Source: a virus
Virus genome (UHGV): UHGV-0119633
DNA: 28,006 nt
Reading direction: 5' to 3' (one strand)
A program made the position numbers and the translations under genes. Positions 3,361-21,672 of this stretch are shown here, one piece after another. Position 1 is the stretch's first letter; each line of letters starts with the position of its first letter. The notes beneath the pieces were generated by a model. The model ran no database searches. It was not told where the DNA came from and worked only from the letters and a program-made list of their open reading frames with translations.

Positions 3361-3621
3361 TTATCTCACATCAACGTTGCATCCAAAATTAATCAGATAA
3401 TCGGTAGTACAACCCAACACATGAGACATTCTAGCGATAACATCTATTCTAGGGGTACGTTTACATCTCATATAATTAGACATAGCCGACTCAGATATAC
3501 CGATTAATTTAGCCAATTCTTTTTGATTAATGCCGCATAAGTCCATACGGTAATTAAGCTTTTCAACGAAGCGTTTTCGCCATTCAATTTCACTAATAGA
3601 TTTTATAGGAGTCATTTCCAT
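3361..3621 (-). CDS. XRE-family helix-turn-helix DNA-binding protein
   Basis: INQKELAKLIGISESAMSNYMRCKRTPRIDVIARMSHVLGCTTDYL = Cro/C1-type HTH; RBS AAGGAGGA. Confidence 0.7.
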   Translation of the reverse strand: MEMTPIKSISEIEWRKRFVEKLNYRMDLCGINQKELAKLIGISESAMSNYMRCKRTPRIDVIARMSHVLGCTTDYLINFGCNVDVR

Positions 3622-3642
3622 AAAAATATCAATCCTCCTTAC

Positions 3643-3813
3643 TTACTTCTCTTCTTGGTACATTCTCTCTAAAGCAGTTCTAAATACATCAGCAGCACTC
3701 ATACCTGTTGACTTACGAACCTTCTCTAAAATATCTAATTCTTTCCTATTAACACGAACTAGATATCTTGTATCTCTAGGATCTGCTATCGGTTTTCTAC
3801 CTCTCTTCGCCAT
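3643..3813 (-). CDS. small basic/AT-hook RHH-like protein (56 aa, MAKRGRKPIADPRDTRYLVRVNRKELDILEKVRKSTGMSAADVFRTALERMYQEEK)
   Basis: Hand-translated; below ORF-track size cutoff; RBS AAGGGAGG 8 nt upstream; clear paralog of 6290-6493 (RGRP..DPR..Y..R.N..E...LE...K.TGM..ADVFR.ALE..Y). Confidence 0.55.
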   Translation of the reverse strand: MAKRGRKPIADPRDTRYLVRVNRKELDILEKVRKSTGMSAADVFRTALERMYQEEK

Positions 3814-3910
3814 ACATATCGCCTCCCTTCTATGACAGATACCATTAATACGAAAAACAAAAGAAGAGCCTCAACTAAATATCAATCTAGTCAAAGCTCT
3901 CCCACATCAA

Positions 3911-3982
3911 TTAATCTTTAAGATAACCAACTTTATATAAGAATCTTCCTACAACTGCCCAAAACTTCTGTCTGAGTGTCAT
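3911..3982 (-). CDS. possible 23-aa peptide (MTLRQKFWAVVGRFLYKVGYLKD)
   Basis: Strong RBS AAAGGAGGGA 6 nt upstream of ATG, ~30 nt downstream of promoter-like motif D; very short. Confidence 0.2.
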   Translation of the reverse strand: MTLRQKFWAVVGRFLYKVGYLKD

Positions 3983-4007
3983 ATAGATCCCTCCTTTCTA
4001 TTTGGTT

Positions 4008-4040
4008 TCTTTTCATAATAGGCGTTGTTAATATCACGAA
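4008..4040 (-). promoter_or_regulatory. conserved intergenic motif, copy D
   Basis: Minus-strand TTCGTGATATTAACAACGCCTATTATGAAAAG. Confidence 0.3.
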
Positions 4041-4063
4041 AGAAAAAGAGAGAAGAAGTATAT

Positions 4064-4205
4064 CTCAGCTACACGTTTCTCTGCATCCATTTAAAGACAC
4101 ATTCACTGGTCAGTTCCAGTCCCACTAATATACTTTGATGCTACACGTTTCTCCATACATAAGTATGTTCACTGGTCAGTTCCAGTCCCACATCAACTTT
4201 TATTC
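4064..4205. repeat. tandem ~70-bp direct repeat (2 copies) with internal hairpin
   Basis: Both copies share CTACACGTTTCTC and TTCACTGGTCAGTTCCAGTCCCAC (ACTGG/CCAGT stem); located between promoter-like motifs E and D. Confidence 0.55.
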
Positions 4206-4238
4206 TTCTCTCATAATATAAAATGTATTTTTCGCGAA
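4206..4238 (-). promoter_or_regulatory. conserved intergenic motif, copy E
   Basis: Minus-strand TTCGCGAAAAATACATTTTATATTATGAGAGA; directly after terminator 4237-4264. Confidence 0.35.
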
Positions 4239-4998: not shown

Positions 4999-5289
4999 TC
5001 AATCCTCCTTCGTTTTATCTGCCATATCTCGAATAAGCACAATCTCATTGATATCATCCTCAATACGACGATAAATGCTATCAAATTTTTCCTGATAACG
5101 ATACATGTCTTGCAAATAGAAACTATGTATACGACTGTCTCGCTTACCGAAATTGACGATAACAGTTATGTATAAACCATCAAATTGGATATTAATTGGT
5201 ATATCATTCGCGCACCCAAGATCTCGTAACATCATTAATGCGGTAGTTACGTTAGTTATCATGTTGGTTTCATCGTTATAAAACTTCAT
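4999..5289 (-). CDS. hypothetical protein (96 aa)
   Basis: ORF track; stereotyped junction GGAGGATTGATATTTT-ATG. Confidence 0.6.
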   Translation of the reverse strand: MKFYNDETNMITNVTTALMMLRDLGCANDIPINIQFDGLYITVIVNFGKRDSRIHSFYLQDMYRYQEKFDSIYRRIEDDINEIVLIRDMADKTKED

Positions 5290-5295
5290 AAAATA

Positions 5296-5538
5296 TCAAT
5301 CCTCCAATGGCTTACCAGAACAATCCACCTCGATCATCTCTGGATTAGTATGTAACGTTTTCCCAAACTCCATTAATTCGGTAAGTAATTTGTTAAACTT
5401 AATAATAAATTCTTTAAGTGCCTCCTCACGAGTTTCGCCATACCCTTCGATAGTATAAATAGTATAGTCATCAAAATCTGCGCTTACGGTATGAGACTGC
5501 CACCTACCTTTTCCATCGTCATTATGTGTTAACTTCAT
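5296..5538 (-). CDS. hypothetical protein (80 aa)
   Basis: Start set to ATG 5536-5538 (MKLTHND) which carries GGAGGATTGAGTTT spacing; track ORF extends to 5556. Confidence 0.55.
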   Translation of the reverse strand: MKLTHNDDGKGRWQSHTVSADFDDYTIYTIEGYGETREEALKEFIIKFNKLLTELMEFGKTLHTNPEMIEVDCSGKPLED

Positions 5539-5552
5539 AAACTCAATCCTCC

Positions 5553-5834
5553 TCACAACATTTCATCAGCTAATTCCAAACAAATCTCTCTGGCCTGATC
5601 CCAAATATCAATCTCAAATGACACTCTCTTATATTCTTCCGAAAGAGATGTGTATCGGTCACTAAGCTCCATGTATTCACGGTAGCTTAATGATTCTTCA
5701 CCATCTTTTAGTTTTCTATCAATCTCAATCATCTCTCTCGATACAGCACATTTCTTTTTAATACACTCTACGTACTTATCGCTCATGGCCTGCCTTACTG
5801 CGGTGTTGTATTTGGTGATACTTTCTTTACTCAT
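5553..5834 (-). CDS. hypothetical protein (93 aa)
   Basis: ORF track; junction GGAGGATTGATATTTT-ATG. Confidence 0.6.
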   Translation of the reverse strand: MSKESITKYNTAVRQAMSDKYVECIKKKCAVSREMIEIDRKLKDGEESLSYREYMELSDRYTSLSEEYKRVSFEIDIWDQAREICLELADEML

Positions 5835-5840
5835 AAAATA

Positions 5841-6098
5841 TCAATCCTCCTTCTTGATGACGTCTATGCTAGCCTGAGCTAAAACAAAACCATCCATGTA
5901 ATCAGTATCGATATCAACTGTAATTTGTTGTTTCAACTGATCGGTAAATAACCCTGCGATATCTTCTGAAATACTGTCGGCCGGTGTGTCTGATCTGTAA
6001 ATTTTATTAACACGATACTTTATAATATCTTTTGTTGGTTCTTTAAGTCTTTTTAACTCTCTTTTTAACTTTTTATTCTTGATTTTAAGATTACTCAT
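5841..6098 (-). CDS. hypothetical protein (85 aa)
   Basis: ORF track; RBS GGAGGAATGATGTTTTT-ATG. Confidence 0.6.
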   Translation of the reverse strand: MSNLKIKNKKLKRELKRLKEPTKDIIKYRVNKIYRSDTPADSISEDIAGLFTDQLKQQITVDIDTDYMDGFVLAQASIDVIKKED

Positions 6099-12334: not shown

Positions 12335-12366
12335 TTTTCTATAAAGGAGTTTGTTTTATCCGCGAA
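12335..12366 (-). promoter_or_regulatory. conserved intergenic motif, copy H
   Basis: Minus-strand TTCGCGGATAAAACAAACTCCTTTATAGAAAA; ~25 nt upstream of start of 12035-12310. Confidence 0.35.
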
Positions 12367-14733: not shown

Positions 14734-14901
14734 CTACCTCCTATTTTTCATCATCCGTTCGAAGTCGTTAATAACTTCTTGCTGATGATTGATGATTCCG
14801 ATCAACTCATTTACTTTTTGAACCAGAATCTTATCGGTATGTCCGTATTCGTCTGATACATACCAAGGTTTATTAAGTCTGTTGATTTTCTTTTTAGGCA
14901 T
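14734..14901 (-). CDS. hypothetical small protein (55 aa, MPKKKINRLNKPWYVSDEYGH...)
   Basis: Hand-translated; RBS AAAGGAGGGTTGATATT-ATG; first gene after long structured leader. Confidence 0.45.
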   Translation of the reverse strand: MPKKKINRLNKPWYVSDEYGHTDKILVQKVNELIGIINHQQEVINDFERMMKNRR

Positions 14902-14937
14902 AATATCAACCCTCCTTTTTAAATCAGTCTCAGTTCC

Positions 14938-14982
14938 TTCAAACAGAAAACAAAAAGAGTCCTAATCATTTCTGATTAAGAC
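14938..14982 (-). terminator. terminator-like hairpin inside 5' leader (attenuator or sRNA 3' end)
   Basis: Plus GTCCTAATCA-TTTC-TGATTAAGAC (10-bp stem, 1 mismatch) with A-run 14940-14957 (U-run on minus RNA); sits between promoter-like motif I and RBS of 14734-14901. Confidence 0.5.
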
Positions 14983-15110
14983 CCTTTCCAAGAATAAGAA
15001 TAGAGTTGCGCAAATCTAATGCCTTCGCGAGGGGGCGGCTTTTACACCGAGGACAGTCGCAACATTAGATATCTCTATCCTAAGCATAACTAATCCCTAT
15101 CCATTTAATT
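14938..15110 (-). ncRNA. candidate small RNA / regulatory leader (promoter-like motif to terminator)
   Basis: Contains unusually GC-rich block CCTTCGCGAGGGGGCGGC (15019-15036) bracketed by 8-bp inverted repeat ATCTAATG (15011-15018) / CATTAGAT (15064-15071), followed by terminator hairpin; no ORF with RBS inside. Confidence 0.25.
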
Positions 15111-15115
15111 ATGCA

Positions 15116-15147
15116 GTTTCTCATAATAGGAATTGTATTTATCGCGA
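15116..15147 (-). promoter_or_regulatory. conserved intergenic motif, copy I
   Basis: Minus-strand TTCGCGATAAATACAATTCCTATTATGAGAAA; directly after terminator 15146-15176, heads a ~210-nt structured leader. Confidence 0.35.
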
Positions 15148-15176
15148 ATAAAGAAAAGCCCCGGATAGAGGGCTTA
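15146..15176 (-). terminator. rho-independent terminator
   Basis: AAGCCC-CGGAUAGA-GGGCUU hairpin then UUUCUUUAUU on minus RNA; 5 nt after stop of 15181-15537. Confidence 0.65.
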
Positions 15177-15180
15177 TCTA

Positions 15181-15537
15181 TTAAATCTTGTTTTTCTCTA
15201 AATAGAGTTCTTCAAGTTGTATAGTTAGTTCTTCTATCCGTGCTTGCCTTTCTGGAATTCTACTAAATTTATTAATGTTTATAGTATCATCCAATCTGCT
15301 TATAGATTCCTTTAACTCGTCAATTTCAAATATCACGCGCTTTATCTCTCTGTCGATACTTCTTTTTGCTACCGATGTAACCTTTCCTAGTCTAATGTCG
15401 ATACTGTTCAGAATCTTAGTCTTATGATTCAACTTGCATCCCATTATAACTAATCCAGTTCCGGCGACAGCTAATGATATCTCGATTTTATGCTCCTTGA
15501 TATAGTCTTTAGCTTTGTTAAATTTTTCTTTCAGCAT
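15181..15537 (-). CDS. membrane-anchored coiled-coil protein, paralog of 453-836 N-terminus
   Basis: ORF track 118 aa; RBS AAAGGAGG; MLKEKFNKAKDYIKEHKIEIS...GLVI parallels MKEKLEKAKIFVKEHKKEILIGTGLVI. Confidence 0.6.
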   Translation of the reverse strand: MLKEKFNKAKDYIKEHKIEISLAVAGTGLVIMGCKLNHKTKILNSIDIRLGKVTSVAKRSIDREIKRVIFEIDELKESISRLDDTININKFSRIPERQARIEELTIQLEELYLEKNKI

Positions 15538-20103: not shown

Positions 20104-21672
20104 CTATTTAGCCAAGCCCCTTTCGTTTAGTGCATCCTCAACTGCGGAATATCGATCTGAGTTAAGTTGCTCTAATAAGCACTCTAGCGGATCGGTGTTA
20201 TTACTAAGCACCATATTGGTAATAATCGGACTAAATCCACTTACTAAAGCAACTCCTAGATCGTTCTCTTTTACTGGGATGGTTCCTGTTCTGCTACAAA
20301 TGTTCCAGAATATCAATCTAGGAAGTTTATAGCCGTACTGAGAGTAACGATCTGATATCGTATTAAACAGTGTTTTACTCGGTCTGATATTGCTCCATCT
20401 TGAACCTCCTTCGCAACTAGCACAGCTATCAAATTCCATATCTGATAAGATAAGTATGTTTTTAGGAATGTCGTTCTGTGACATGTTATTGTTGATTGCT
20501 GTTTTGAGAATAAGTTCAAATACAGCTTCGATGTTTGTGTTAGCCACCTCGTTGTATCTCCTGGCAATTTCGATCTTTTCTCTCAAAGATTCTCCGTTAC
20601 TAAGATCTACTAAACGAGGATTCATGCTGAATGTAATATATTTGTCTCTGAATTCACCAGAACTTCTTTCAGAAAAATATATTGCAAGAGCATTGGCTAC
20701 CTCTAAAGCTGTTACACTTGTTCCGCCGACAGGACAGTCCATACTACCCGATCCGTCCGCAACGCAAATTGTGTTACCGTCTCCGTTTACATAATCGGGA
20801 AGTGCTTTCCACAATTCTTCAAGTGTAATGTCATCTTTACCTTTGAGTTTATTCCCGTACCAAAATTCACCCCGATCAAAGTATTTATGTACAATATCAT
20901 GCGGGAATAGTACACCAGCATTGATTTTCGTCTCGCCTTTCTGCAAACTCGCTAAGTAACTACTTCTCCTTTCCTCATCGTTCTTCATAAACGCATTACC
21001 ATATATAATATTGGCTCTTGATGGAACCGCAGAATAATCAATCTTTGACCATTCTTTCTTACACATACTAACTTCCACAACTTTTAAATATGCACGAAGA
21101 TCCGAAAGCATTTTACGATAGGATTTCTCGTTAATAAATAACTTCTGAATCATAAGACGTGCTAGTCGTTTTGTCTCTTTAGACGAAGTGTTTGCAGACG
21201 GCATCCATTTAGCTAATAAAGAAATAGGCTCTCCTAGAGATCTCTTCCTTATATCACTTGTCAACTGTGTAGATACAATTGATACAACGTAGTCTGAAAC
21301 GTCAGTGTCTAATAAACACCATAAATCATCCCATCTACCGTATTCCGGAACCAACGGAATGATTGCCTTTGATATATCGGCATGTTTTTCGGATAGATAC
21401 TTAAGACAATATCTGAATAATCTTCTTTCTCCGAGACCTTCTCGTACATCTCTGGCATAGAACAACCACTTGATAGCAAGCTGTTTGTTTTCGTAGAATG
21501 TCTTTACAAACTTGTCTACGATTTCTCCCTCGTCCATATTTCGCATGGATGTTACTGAAAAGTTGATGTCAAGAAGTTCTTTACCAGTAGTACGGTAACC
21601 AACTGCTCCATTTTCAGTAAGGCTTGTGTTGAATTCATCATTGATTGTTTCTTTCAGATTGTTCATAAACAT
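20104..21672 (-). CDS. vWA-domain protein with MIDAS motif and TROVE/Ro60-like N-terminal region (DUF2828-like)
   Basis: 522 aa; DGSGSM (DxSxS MIDAS) followed by vWA-like layout; N-terminal GYRTTGKELLD and LAIKWLFYARDVREGLGERR resemble TROVE module; RBS AAAGGAGAAAAACT. Confidence 0.6.
   Translation of the reverse strand: MFMNNLKETINDEFNTSLTENGAVGYRTTGKELLDINFSVTSMRNMDEGEIVDKFVKTFYENKQLAIKWLFYARDVREGLGERRLFRYCLKYLSEKHADISKAIIPLVPEYGRWDDLWCLLDTDVSDYVVSIVSTQLTSDIRKRSLGEPISLLAKWMPSANTSSKETKRLARLMIQKLFINEKSYRKMLSDLRAYLKVVEVSMCKKEWSKIDYSAVPSRANIIYGNAFMKNDEERRSSYLASLQKGETKINAGVLFPHDIVHKYFDRGEFWYGNKLKGKDDITLEELWKALPDYVNGDGNTICVADGSGSMDCPVGGTSVTALEVANALAIYFSERSSGEFRDKYITFSMNPRLVDLSNGESLREKIEIARRYNEVANTNIEAVFELILKTAINNNMSQNDIPKNILILSDMEFDSCASCEGGSRWSNIRPSKTLFNTISDRYSQYGYKLPRLIFWNICSRTGTIPVKENDLGVALVSGFSPIITNMVLSNNTDPLECLLEQLNSDRYSAVEDALNERGLAK

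Follow-up and report, generated by a model that had tools for sequence, protein, structure and literature searches.

The window analysed here, a 28,006-nucleotide (nt) stretch of the virus genome UHGV-0119633, carries on its minus strand a 128-nt non-coding core (15118-14991) placed between a phage-specific promoter motif and a strong intrinsic terminator. We regard the chances as evenly balanced that this locus is an accessory cassette which yields a terminated RNA of ~173 nt and whose read-through transcription serves the operon behind it. The features of the locus are real and jointly beyond chance, and the core is a clean insertion/deletion among related phages, i.e. a discrete, swappable module. 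The support for an RNA product is circumstantial: the fold is specific to one strand, the GC content of the window peaks here, promoter and terminator frame the core, and no open reading frame (ORF) in it is credible. In the proposed mechanism, transcription would initiate at the phage-specific motif I, start near 15117 and proceed through the core, which would fold as it is transcribed, with a hairpin (P1) at the 5′ end and then a long rod with bulges (P2-P5) whose centre is rich in GC and particularly in C. At the terminator, most polymerases would stop and release a stable small RNA. The fraction that reads through would retain the core as a 5′ leader and supply a promoter-less gene for a 55-amino-acid (aa) protein together with the genes that follow. 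The core itself may be exchanged between phages by recombination in the flanking conserved promoter and terminator sequences, in the manner of promoter-early stem-loop (PeSL) cassettes and morons.

Every element that the first-pass annotation had described was found on the minus strand, with small corrections of coordinates only. The upstream gene (118 aa, 15537..15181) is closed by terminator 1 (AAGCCCTCTATCCGGGGCTT). This terminator had been placed at 15146-15176; its hairpin spans 15175-15156 and its T-tract extends to ~15147. The terminator scan assigned it seven pairs, four of them GC, and the GC-containing hairpin is followed by TTCTTTATTC, as is typical of intrinsic terminators. The same terminator module is carried by the related phage locus L169. 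Directly after it, as proposed, comes promoter motif I (CGCGATAAATACAATTCCTATTATG, 15146-15122) with a −10-like TATTAT at 15128-15123, and the core follows. Terminator 2, referred to as type A (element 14941..14990), had been recognized as a second strong hairpin with a U-tract at 14958-14981. Its hairpin in fact covers 14990-14951 and forms 18 pairs in the terminator scan. The hairpin core, GGGTCTTAATCA-GAAA-TGATTAGGACTC, is succeeded by the U-tract TTTTCTGTTT, again the arrangement of an intrinsic terminator. A ribosome-binding site (RBS; GGAGGG, 14915-14910) lies 15 nt upstream of the ATG at 14901 of the 55-aa gene (14901..14734, minus strand), which was recovered by independent gene calls and heads a run of genes. 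As this run has no promoter, the 55-aa gene would be transcribed solely by read-through of the terminator. The nearest downstream copy of motif I is a near-copy at 12364.

The copy of motif I that belongs to the element reads CGCG-N7-CA-N5-TATTAT (15146-15123). The pattern CGCG-N7-CA-N5/6-TWTWAT has seven exact matches in the window (376, 4236, 15146, 15597, 16169, 18311 and 21916), all of them on the minus strand and intergenic, compared with 0.03 expected from shuffled sequences. Further near-copies are located at 902, 1516, 4038 and 11583, and the fuller consensus is (T)TCGCG(A)-N5-ACA-N5/6-T(A/T)TTATGA(G/A)A. Position, orientation and enrichment point to a promoter function of the motif, with a probable transcription start around 15117. 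Motif I was not called by a sigma-70 consensus scan and is not a canonical sigma-70 promoter. Because its palindromic TTCGCGAA portion is positioned where a −35 element would not be, the motif may be read by a phage sigma factor or activator rather than by the host sigma-A alone.

Within the core, the 8-bp inverted repeat that had been noticed at the outset (ATCTAATG at 15070-15063 and CATTAGAT at 15021-15014) extends to a 14-bp bulged helix. The accompanying block of unusually high GC was borne out as well. The segment GCCGCCCCCTCGCGAAGG (15039-15022, minus strand), with G or C at 15 of 18 positions, falls within the most GC-rich 18-nt and 40-nt stretches of the window. The predicted fold comprises the helices P1 (15114-15105/15093-15084), P2 (15081-15073/15005-14997), P3 (15070-15062/15022-15014), which corresponds to the inverted repeat, P4 (15061-15057/15030-15026) and P5 (15049-15046/15039-15036). 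Both P5 and P4 draw their 3′ strands from the GC-rich block, which also provides the C5 loop. The structure further has an internal loop rich in C and U (CUGUCCU / CCCCC) and, at 15013-15006, a bulge of 8 nt (UUGCGCAA); the single-sequence fold and the consensus fold agree on this arrangement. A GC peak in an otherwise AT-rich genome is what one would expect of a structured RNA. The minus-strand core reaches −34.2 kcal/mol (z −1.87; 10 of 200 shuffles were as good), and core plus terminator have a z-score of −2.9. The plus strand of the core attains −25.6 kcal/mol (z −0.37). The complement folds more weakly because five helix positions are G-U pairs. These pairs render the helices strand-specific and the core is thus not a DNA palindrome.

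The sole ORF in the core comprises 23 codons (MLRIEISNVATVLGVKAAPSRRH, 15087..15016, minus strand). That the cargo of the cassette is this micro-protein gene seems very unlikely to us, even though neighbouring cassettes hold tiny ORFs (a 23-codon ORF at 3982..3911 with a strong Shine-Dalgarno (SD) sequence and the small ORFs of L152, L153 and L252). The duplex energy of its SD sequence is −6.0 kcal/mol compared with a median of −12.5 kcal/mol for 72 genes, which is weaker than in 71 of these genes, with one as weak, and no better than in 23% of random ATGs. Moreover, its start codon is tied up in P1, on the 3′ strand of that helix. The ORF has no match to a PHROG family and was never annotated by gene callers in seven contigs. 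Six-frame translations of the core revealed no protein similarity in related loci. The ORF contains a lone substitution, GTT to GTC, which is synonymous, and six of the seven variable sites of the core lie outside it. Both points favour a coding sequence, but a single synonymous change is statistically weightless. Translation of the ORF is unlikely.

The modular nature of the core is evident from the comparison of related phage loci, designated here by L numbers. For a wider sample, homologues of the 55-aa protein were searched, which gave 35 clusters at 67-96% identity, and their contigs were fetched. The core is carried by the window phage (seven contigs with an identical element), by L001-type phages (L162-L166 and L168-L171) and by L172. 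At least 15 independent samples contain it, in five variants with identities of 96.9% or more. L005, L151-L161, L167, L173-L182 and L250-L252 lack the core. In L005, whose helicase is 93% identical, CTATTATGAGAGAC is immediately followed by a hairpin with U-tract, an RBS and the gene; L001 has the L005 frame plus 128 nt between promoter and hairpin. Likewise, the core-less L154 and L156 contain terminator, promoter, hairpin with U-tract, RBS and the 55-aa gene. In other relatives the slot holds a terminator alone or one of three unrelated small ORFs. In the 'empty' cassettes of L005 and L154/L156 (L005:7470-7566 and L154/L156:3890-3990), the terminator-like hairpin and U-tract lie within ~10 nt of the motif-I promoter and the RBS of the next gene comes directly after them. 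A promoter firing straight into a terminator implies leaky termination, a role as 5′ stabilizer or phage antitermination.

Three different upstream contexts precede the core in its carriers: the gene for the 118-aa protein together with its terminator, the end of the helicase gene (3′ side), or a gene for a homing endonuclease of the GIY-YIG type. Downstream, it is followed either by terminator A and the 55-aa gene or by the unrelated terminator B and a gene for a 103-aa protein. All four combinations of the 118-aa or helicase-end context with A or B were seen; behind the endonuclease gene, the core was followed by terminator B in every case seen. Segment by segment, the core is the sole piece common to all carriers (96.9-99.2% identity). 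Flanking segments fall into two classes, those that belong to one shared module (90-100%) and those without relationship (~50%). One junction lies in the promoter spacer, between the −35 side and the −10 side, and the other coincides with the base that opens the terminator hairpin. In all five observed flank combinations the core is intact, with no insertion or deletion, and both downstream genes were also found without it. The core behaves as cassette cargo between recombination-prone regulatory repeats. Homing-endonuclease traffic surrounds the helicase gene among these relatives. In L001-type phages (L001:1415-2062; L162/L165) a free-standing GIY-YIG/NUMOD gene is inserted between helicase and element and is followed by a duplicate of the last ~30 nt of the helicase gene. 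Other relatives have helicase ORFs enlarged by HNH/NUMOD4 inserts, such as L163, L166 and L170 with ORFs of 644-646 aa or more, alongside L151, L157 and L174.

Several observations weigh against the reading of the locus as a cassette for a functional RNA. The promoter motif is non-canonical and its activity is deduced rather than observed, and the fold z-score of the core by itself is only moderate (−1.9). The five near-identical variants differ at 7 of 128 positions, all by transitions, and contain no compensatory pair; shuffles equal the observed covariation value. Four of the seven variable sites fall into predicted helices. Three of these substitutions leave the pairs intact, which speaks in favour of the fold (two change U-G to C-G and one U-A to U-G); the fourth breaks the loop-closing A-U pair of P1. 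An alternative pairing, GUUGCG/CGCAAC, was rejected, as a U-to-C change in L170 would break it yet keeps P4. Furthermore, homologous flanks match or exceed the core in conservation. Between L170 and L163 the flanks are 99.7% identical compared with 98.4% for the core, and between L169 and L163 the values are ~99% and 97.7%. Thus, the high identity of the core cannot be read as purifying selection, since recent common descent explains it. Beyond this small group of close relatives, no homologue turned up in IMG/VR, in the metagenomes of JGI, in the genomes of GTDB or across 2.4 Mb of related loci. A scan of IMG/VR with three exact words of 19-26 nt retrieved only the contig of the window and contig 061906, which is L001 and the same phage as ENA ORMO01000199 (L120). 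An 18-mer search of JGI/ENA metagenomes gave one true match and 35 chance matches, and neither nhmmer nor the covariance model R1 detected a further or diverged copy in the ~2.4 Mb of related phage loci. Finally, an RNA-RNA duplex scan of the phage translation-initiation regions produced no target, the best candidate being no better than 6 of 60 shuffles.

Alternatively, the core could be non-functional filler, a remnant such as a cassette gene in decay or a piece of foreign DNA once picked up, which is carried along passively between promoter and terminator sequences prone to recombination. The narrow distribution, the conservation not exceeding that of the homologous flanks, the zero covariation among variants, the siblings that dispense with the core and the hypervariability of the slot all fit this explanation. 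We consider it unlikely, yet the likeliest of the rival explanations. A filler would not be expected to combine a strand-specific fold with the GC maximum of the genome centred in a long helix, nor to stay free of indels in five flank combinations and at least 15 samples. Moreover, the core has no residual six-frame protein similarity and no match to host-like genomes. A 19-mer search of GTDB genomes returned 24 matches, which were rejected as all were in high-GC bacteria and without extension. A host-derived or attP-type origin of the core is thus not supported.

The first-pass annotation had offered two interpretations of the locus, a small RNA (sRNA) of ~170 nt or a conditional terminator of the riboswitch or antitermination type. 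The sRNA half is favoured, within the reservations given above, by the enriched motif, the strong terminator and the discreteness of the module, and also because the fold is strand-specific and no ORF is credible. The locus has what an sRNA gene needs, i.e. a predicted promoter and a terminator of its own and no signal of a translated ORF. In contrast, the conditional-terminator half is not supported, as there is no Rfam aptamer, terminators and downstream genes are swapped and no alternative pairing was predicted.

If the locus were a riboswitch or an attenuator of the classical type, formation of the terminator would be decided by the core, acting as an aptamer for a ligand or factor. The layout of promoter, structured leader, terminator and operon is that of riboswitches and attenuators in Rfam, and the centre of the core is GC-rich and conserved. 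Even so, this possibility appears most improbable. No Rfam family matched the window at gathering score, and at E≤10 the region 14800-15300 gave just two chance microRNA matches of 13-15 bits. A tRNA/tmRNA scan with ARAGORN found none. The pairs of terminators A and B have probabilities of 0.93-1.0, nearly all above 0.98. Thermodynamic prediction, to which these statements are confined, gave no helix between core and terminator arm and no competing antiterminator in either terminator context or in the nascent transcript, and the core folded identically in nascent and full-length RNA. Hence, the mutually exclusive terminator and antiterminator pairings of an attenuator were not found, and neither was a consistent downstream gene. 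In L001-type phages, the type A terminator is replaced wholesale by the unrelated type B with the core unchanged, and the downstream genes are unrelated small ORFans that occur core-less in siblings. The swapped and stable terminators together with these unrelated or core-less downstream genes therefore speak against any riboswitch or attenuator that has its expression platform integrated. The swaps and the core-less siblings likewise argue against a gene-specific leader role of the core.

A cis-acting leader that works without alternative pairing, either as a put-like modifier that lets RNA polymerase pass the adjoining terminator or as a 5′ stabilizer or processing site of the operon mRNA, is a further explanation that we rate as unlikely. 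It would suit the location of the core exactly between the promoter and the promoter-proximal terminator, ahead of genes without a promoter of their own, as well as its two-domain fold of hairpin and rod. In addition, relatives share the scaffold of promoter, terminator and gene, which makes terminator read-through an issue throughout the group. Read-through is needed in any case because the genes past the terminator have no promoter until 12364, and the same is true for the core-less siblings. However, siblings with the same downstream genes and a similar promoter-proximal terminator do without the core, and read-through therefore does not require it. It also precedes two unrelated terminators and two unrelated genes. 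The core has no Rfam match. To judge from the siblings, the core is dispensable for expression of the neighbouring genes.

If the cassette does produce an sRNA, the most likely kind of role is that of a trans-acting RNA, which might act by base-pairing through its C-rich loop or by sequestration of a protein. The 5′ and 3′ ends of the core RNA, its accumulation as a short species and any function in trans are predicted from the DNA sequence. That the core founds a new family of phage non-coding RNAs (ncRNAs), be it a put-like, protein-independent override of the terminator in cis for the promoter-less genes behind it or a decoy or anti-defence RNA in trans directed against the host, is a more ambitious claim and seems unlikely.

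Two classical phage RNAs share the layout of the locus. The 6S RNA of phage lambda, the leader between pR′ and tR′, is a short transcript that ends at a promoter-proximal terminator ahead of an operon, and the put RNA of phage HK022 is a cis-acting antiterminator RNA. As in lambda 6S, a promoter is followed by a non-coding transcript of ~170-190 nt and a strong terminator, and the downstream genes need read-through. Unlike lambda, no Q-like antiterminator or qut site was identified here, the core is optional in siblings and there is no sequence relationship. The comparison with put, which concerns position and layout only, is based on a structured two-domain RNA between promoter and first terminator; in contrast to HK022, siblings of the window phage manage without it.

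The closest described analogues are the PeSL cassettes of T4-type phages (Arbiol et al. 2010, PMC2839356; Comeau et al. 2014, PMC4122927). They share with the present locus the repeated promoter-plus-terminator motifs, the hyperplastic region and the small non-essential cargos (PMC2839356, PMC4122927). In both cases related phages differ by insertion, deletion or replacement of a cargo, leaving a single regulatory motif, and the recombination junctions lie inside the motifs, here in the promoter spacer and the terminator. Thus, the locus has the motif-bounded cargo, the indel between close relatives and the junctions inside motifs that are expected of a PeSL- or moron-like cassette. It differs in its host group, in an order that includes promoter then terminator, and in a cargo that is non-coding instead of an ORFan. 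For PeSL cassettes, mini-circles and recombination are part of the picture, whereas exchange is proposed here from sequence comparison. Membership of the element in the T4 PeSL sequence family was rejected because its promoter consensus, CGCG-N-ACA-N-TATTATG, which is not sigma-70-like, is a different one. Lambdoid morons (PMC2839356) are similar in being autonomous promoter-terminator units between genes, dispensable and patchily distributed. Here, however, the cargo is apparently an RNA rather than a protein gene, and the conserved flanking repeats probably mediate exchange. Among the trans-acting sRNAs of phages and prophages, the anti-sRNAs AgvB and AsxR (PMC4104026) are likewise small, accessory and patchily distributed non-coding phage units with their own promoter and intrinsic terminator. 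In contrast to the core, which has neither a target match nor homology, they are enterobacterial, Hfq-dependent and have known targets (PMC4104026). Taken together, the element is an orphan, narrowly distributed and optional cassette cargo, to be grouped with phage-borne sRNAs (here a putative one) or moron-like cassettes.

A second ncRNA-like cassette is located at 4045-4236 of the window, also on the minus strand. It consists of a motif-I promoter (4236-4213), a putative RNA of ~165 nt (~4212-4050) and a U-tract. The 5′ end of the RNA (GAGAGAAGAA) pairs with its 3′ end (UUCUUCUCUC) and the fold has a z-score of −2.61. Each of two internal repeats of ~70 nt contains two hairpins, one of GGGNCUGGAACUGACCAG and one that is variable, as well as a conserved GAAACGUGUAG. 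Homologues with 77-82% identity reside just downstream of the helicase gene in five more distant phages (L070:7856-8016; L071/L082:7799-7959; L075:7795-7953; L076:7796-7954). They display compensatory changes, e.g. CAUAC/GUAUG versus CUACG/CGUAG versus CAACU/AGUUG. No Rfam family matched the second cassette at gathering score. It is better conserved than the core cassette. Since it is conserved with compensatory changes, this group of phages appears to carry structured RNAs repeatedly as cargo of promoter/terminator cassettes, and the slot behind the helicase gene is probably one of the places where they reside. By analogy, the second cassette supports the reading of the core as ncRNA cargo. 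Next to it, a mini-cassette on the minus strand (3862-4050) contains the promoter-like copy at 4038 and a 23-codon ORF (MTLRQKFWAVVGRFLYKVGYLKD; ATG 3982, stop 3911) with a strong SD sequence. A 19-pair terminator (3903-3862) follows and then the RBS of the gene 3813..3643.

Another RNA-related element of the window is a gene for a 522-aa protein (21672..20104, minus strand) with DUF2828 and DUF7788 domains, assigned to phrog_850 ('RNA-binding protein'). The AlphaFold model of the protein (predicted local distance difference test score, pLDDT, 79; predicted template modelling score, pTM, 0.70) has the fold of Ro60, i.e. TROVE plus vWA, to judge from its closest structures. The five best matches in the PDB obtained with Foldseek are all Ro60/TROVE proteins aligned over the full length. 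Weak matches to the vWA domain of Ro60 were present in 28 of 45 homologues, and the family has at least 8000 members in metagenomes. The 245-nt leader of the gene (21916-21673) contains three stem-loop modules of the type AAGAYRC-UAACAGCAA...GYRUCUUG. The motif ACAGCAA is 14-fold enriched in the 450 nt upstream of homologues (62 IMG/VR loci, L184-L245). In L185 (9801-9914) a tRNA-like gene has an insertion of 47 nt in its anticodon loop, and the motif lies within this insertion. Protein and leader modules resemble a Ro60, though a divergent one, together with a partner similar to Y RNAs (compare PMC4201824, PMC7824862).

It is hardly probable that the core is such a Y-RNA-type partner of the Ro60-like protein or a site acting at the DNA level, e.g. 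an origin, operator or packaging signal. The inverted repeat, the vicinity of the core to the helicase gene in several phages and the Ro60-like protein encoded by the window phage are compatible with one or the other. For a DNA site, however, the five G-U pairs are inconvenient, and siblings dispense with the core altogether. A Y RNA would be adjacent to the Ro60-like gene, co-occur with it and share its motif, but the core lies 5 kb away. Any link between core and Ro60-like protein was rejected, as the core is devoid of the ACAGCAA modules that accompany Ro60-like genes and the core-bearing contig 061906 is not among the Ro60-like homologue loci found in IMG/VR.

The window is contained in the 96.7-kb IMG/VR contig 3300045988_045688 and represents an uncultured phage whose source assemblies originate from the human gut. 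ERZ1755516, ERR1293630-33, ERZ27237130 and SRR27381227 are among the DNA samples in which it occurs. It has a GC content of ~35%, and essentially all genes are encoded on the minus strand. Nearly every gene is preceded by a strong AGGAGG-type RBS of the Firmicutes style. A near-verbatim translation-initiation repeat, GGAGG(A/G)TTGATATT(T/A)(T)ATG, is found at many gene starts, for instance at 2398-2417, 3612-3643, 5286-5305, 5831-5850 and 14899-14935. Its conservation reaches past the SD sequence into the spacer (repeat families D2, D9 and D18). Megablast and blastn returned no nucleotide match to the window among GenBank phages. The closest relatives of the helicase are 57% identical and come from a 'Bacteriophage sp.' from human faeces and from Faecalibacterium phage FP_oengus. 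The element resides downstream of the helicase gene in a series of small ORFan genes, and this early region is hypervariable.

If the core RNA is real, gut phages would shuffle non-coding RNAs as autonomous cassette cargo in the same way as small ORFan genes. It would add an orphan sRNA to a phage group without a cultured member, which alone is a modest addition. The wider context is weightier: the group has several cassettes of promoter, RNA and terminator, as well as a divergent Ro60-like protein whose gene is preceded by modules resembling Y RNAs. This context suggests that RNA-based functions are a recurrent accessory theme in this group of phages.

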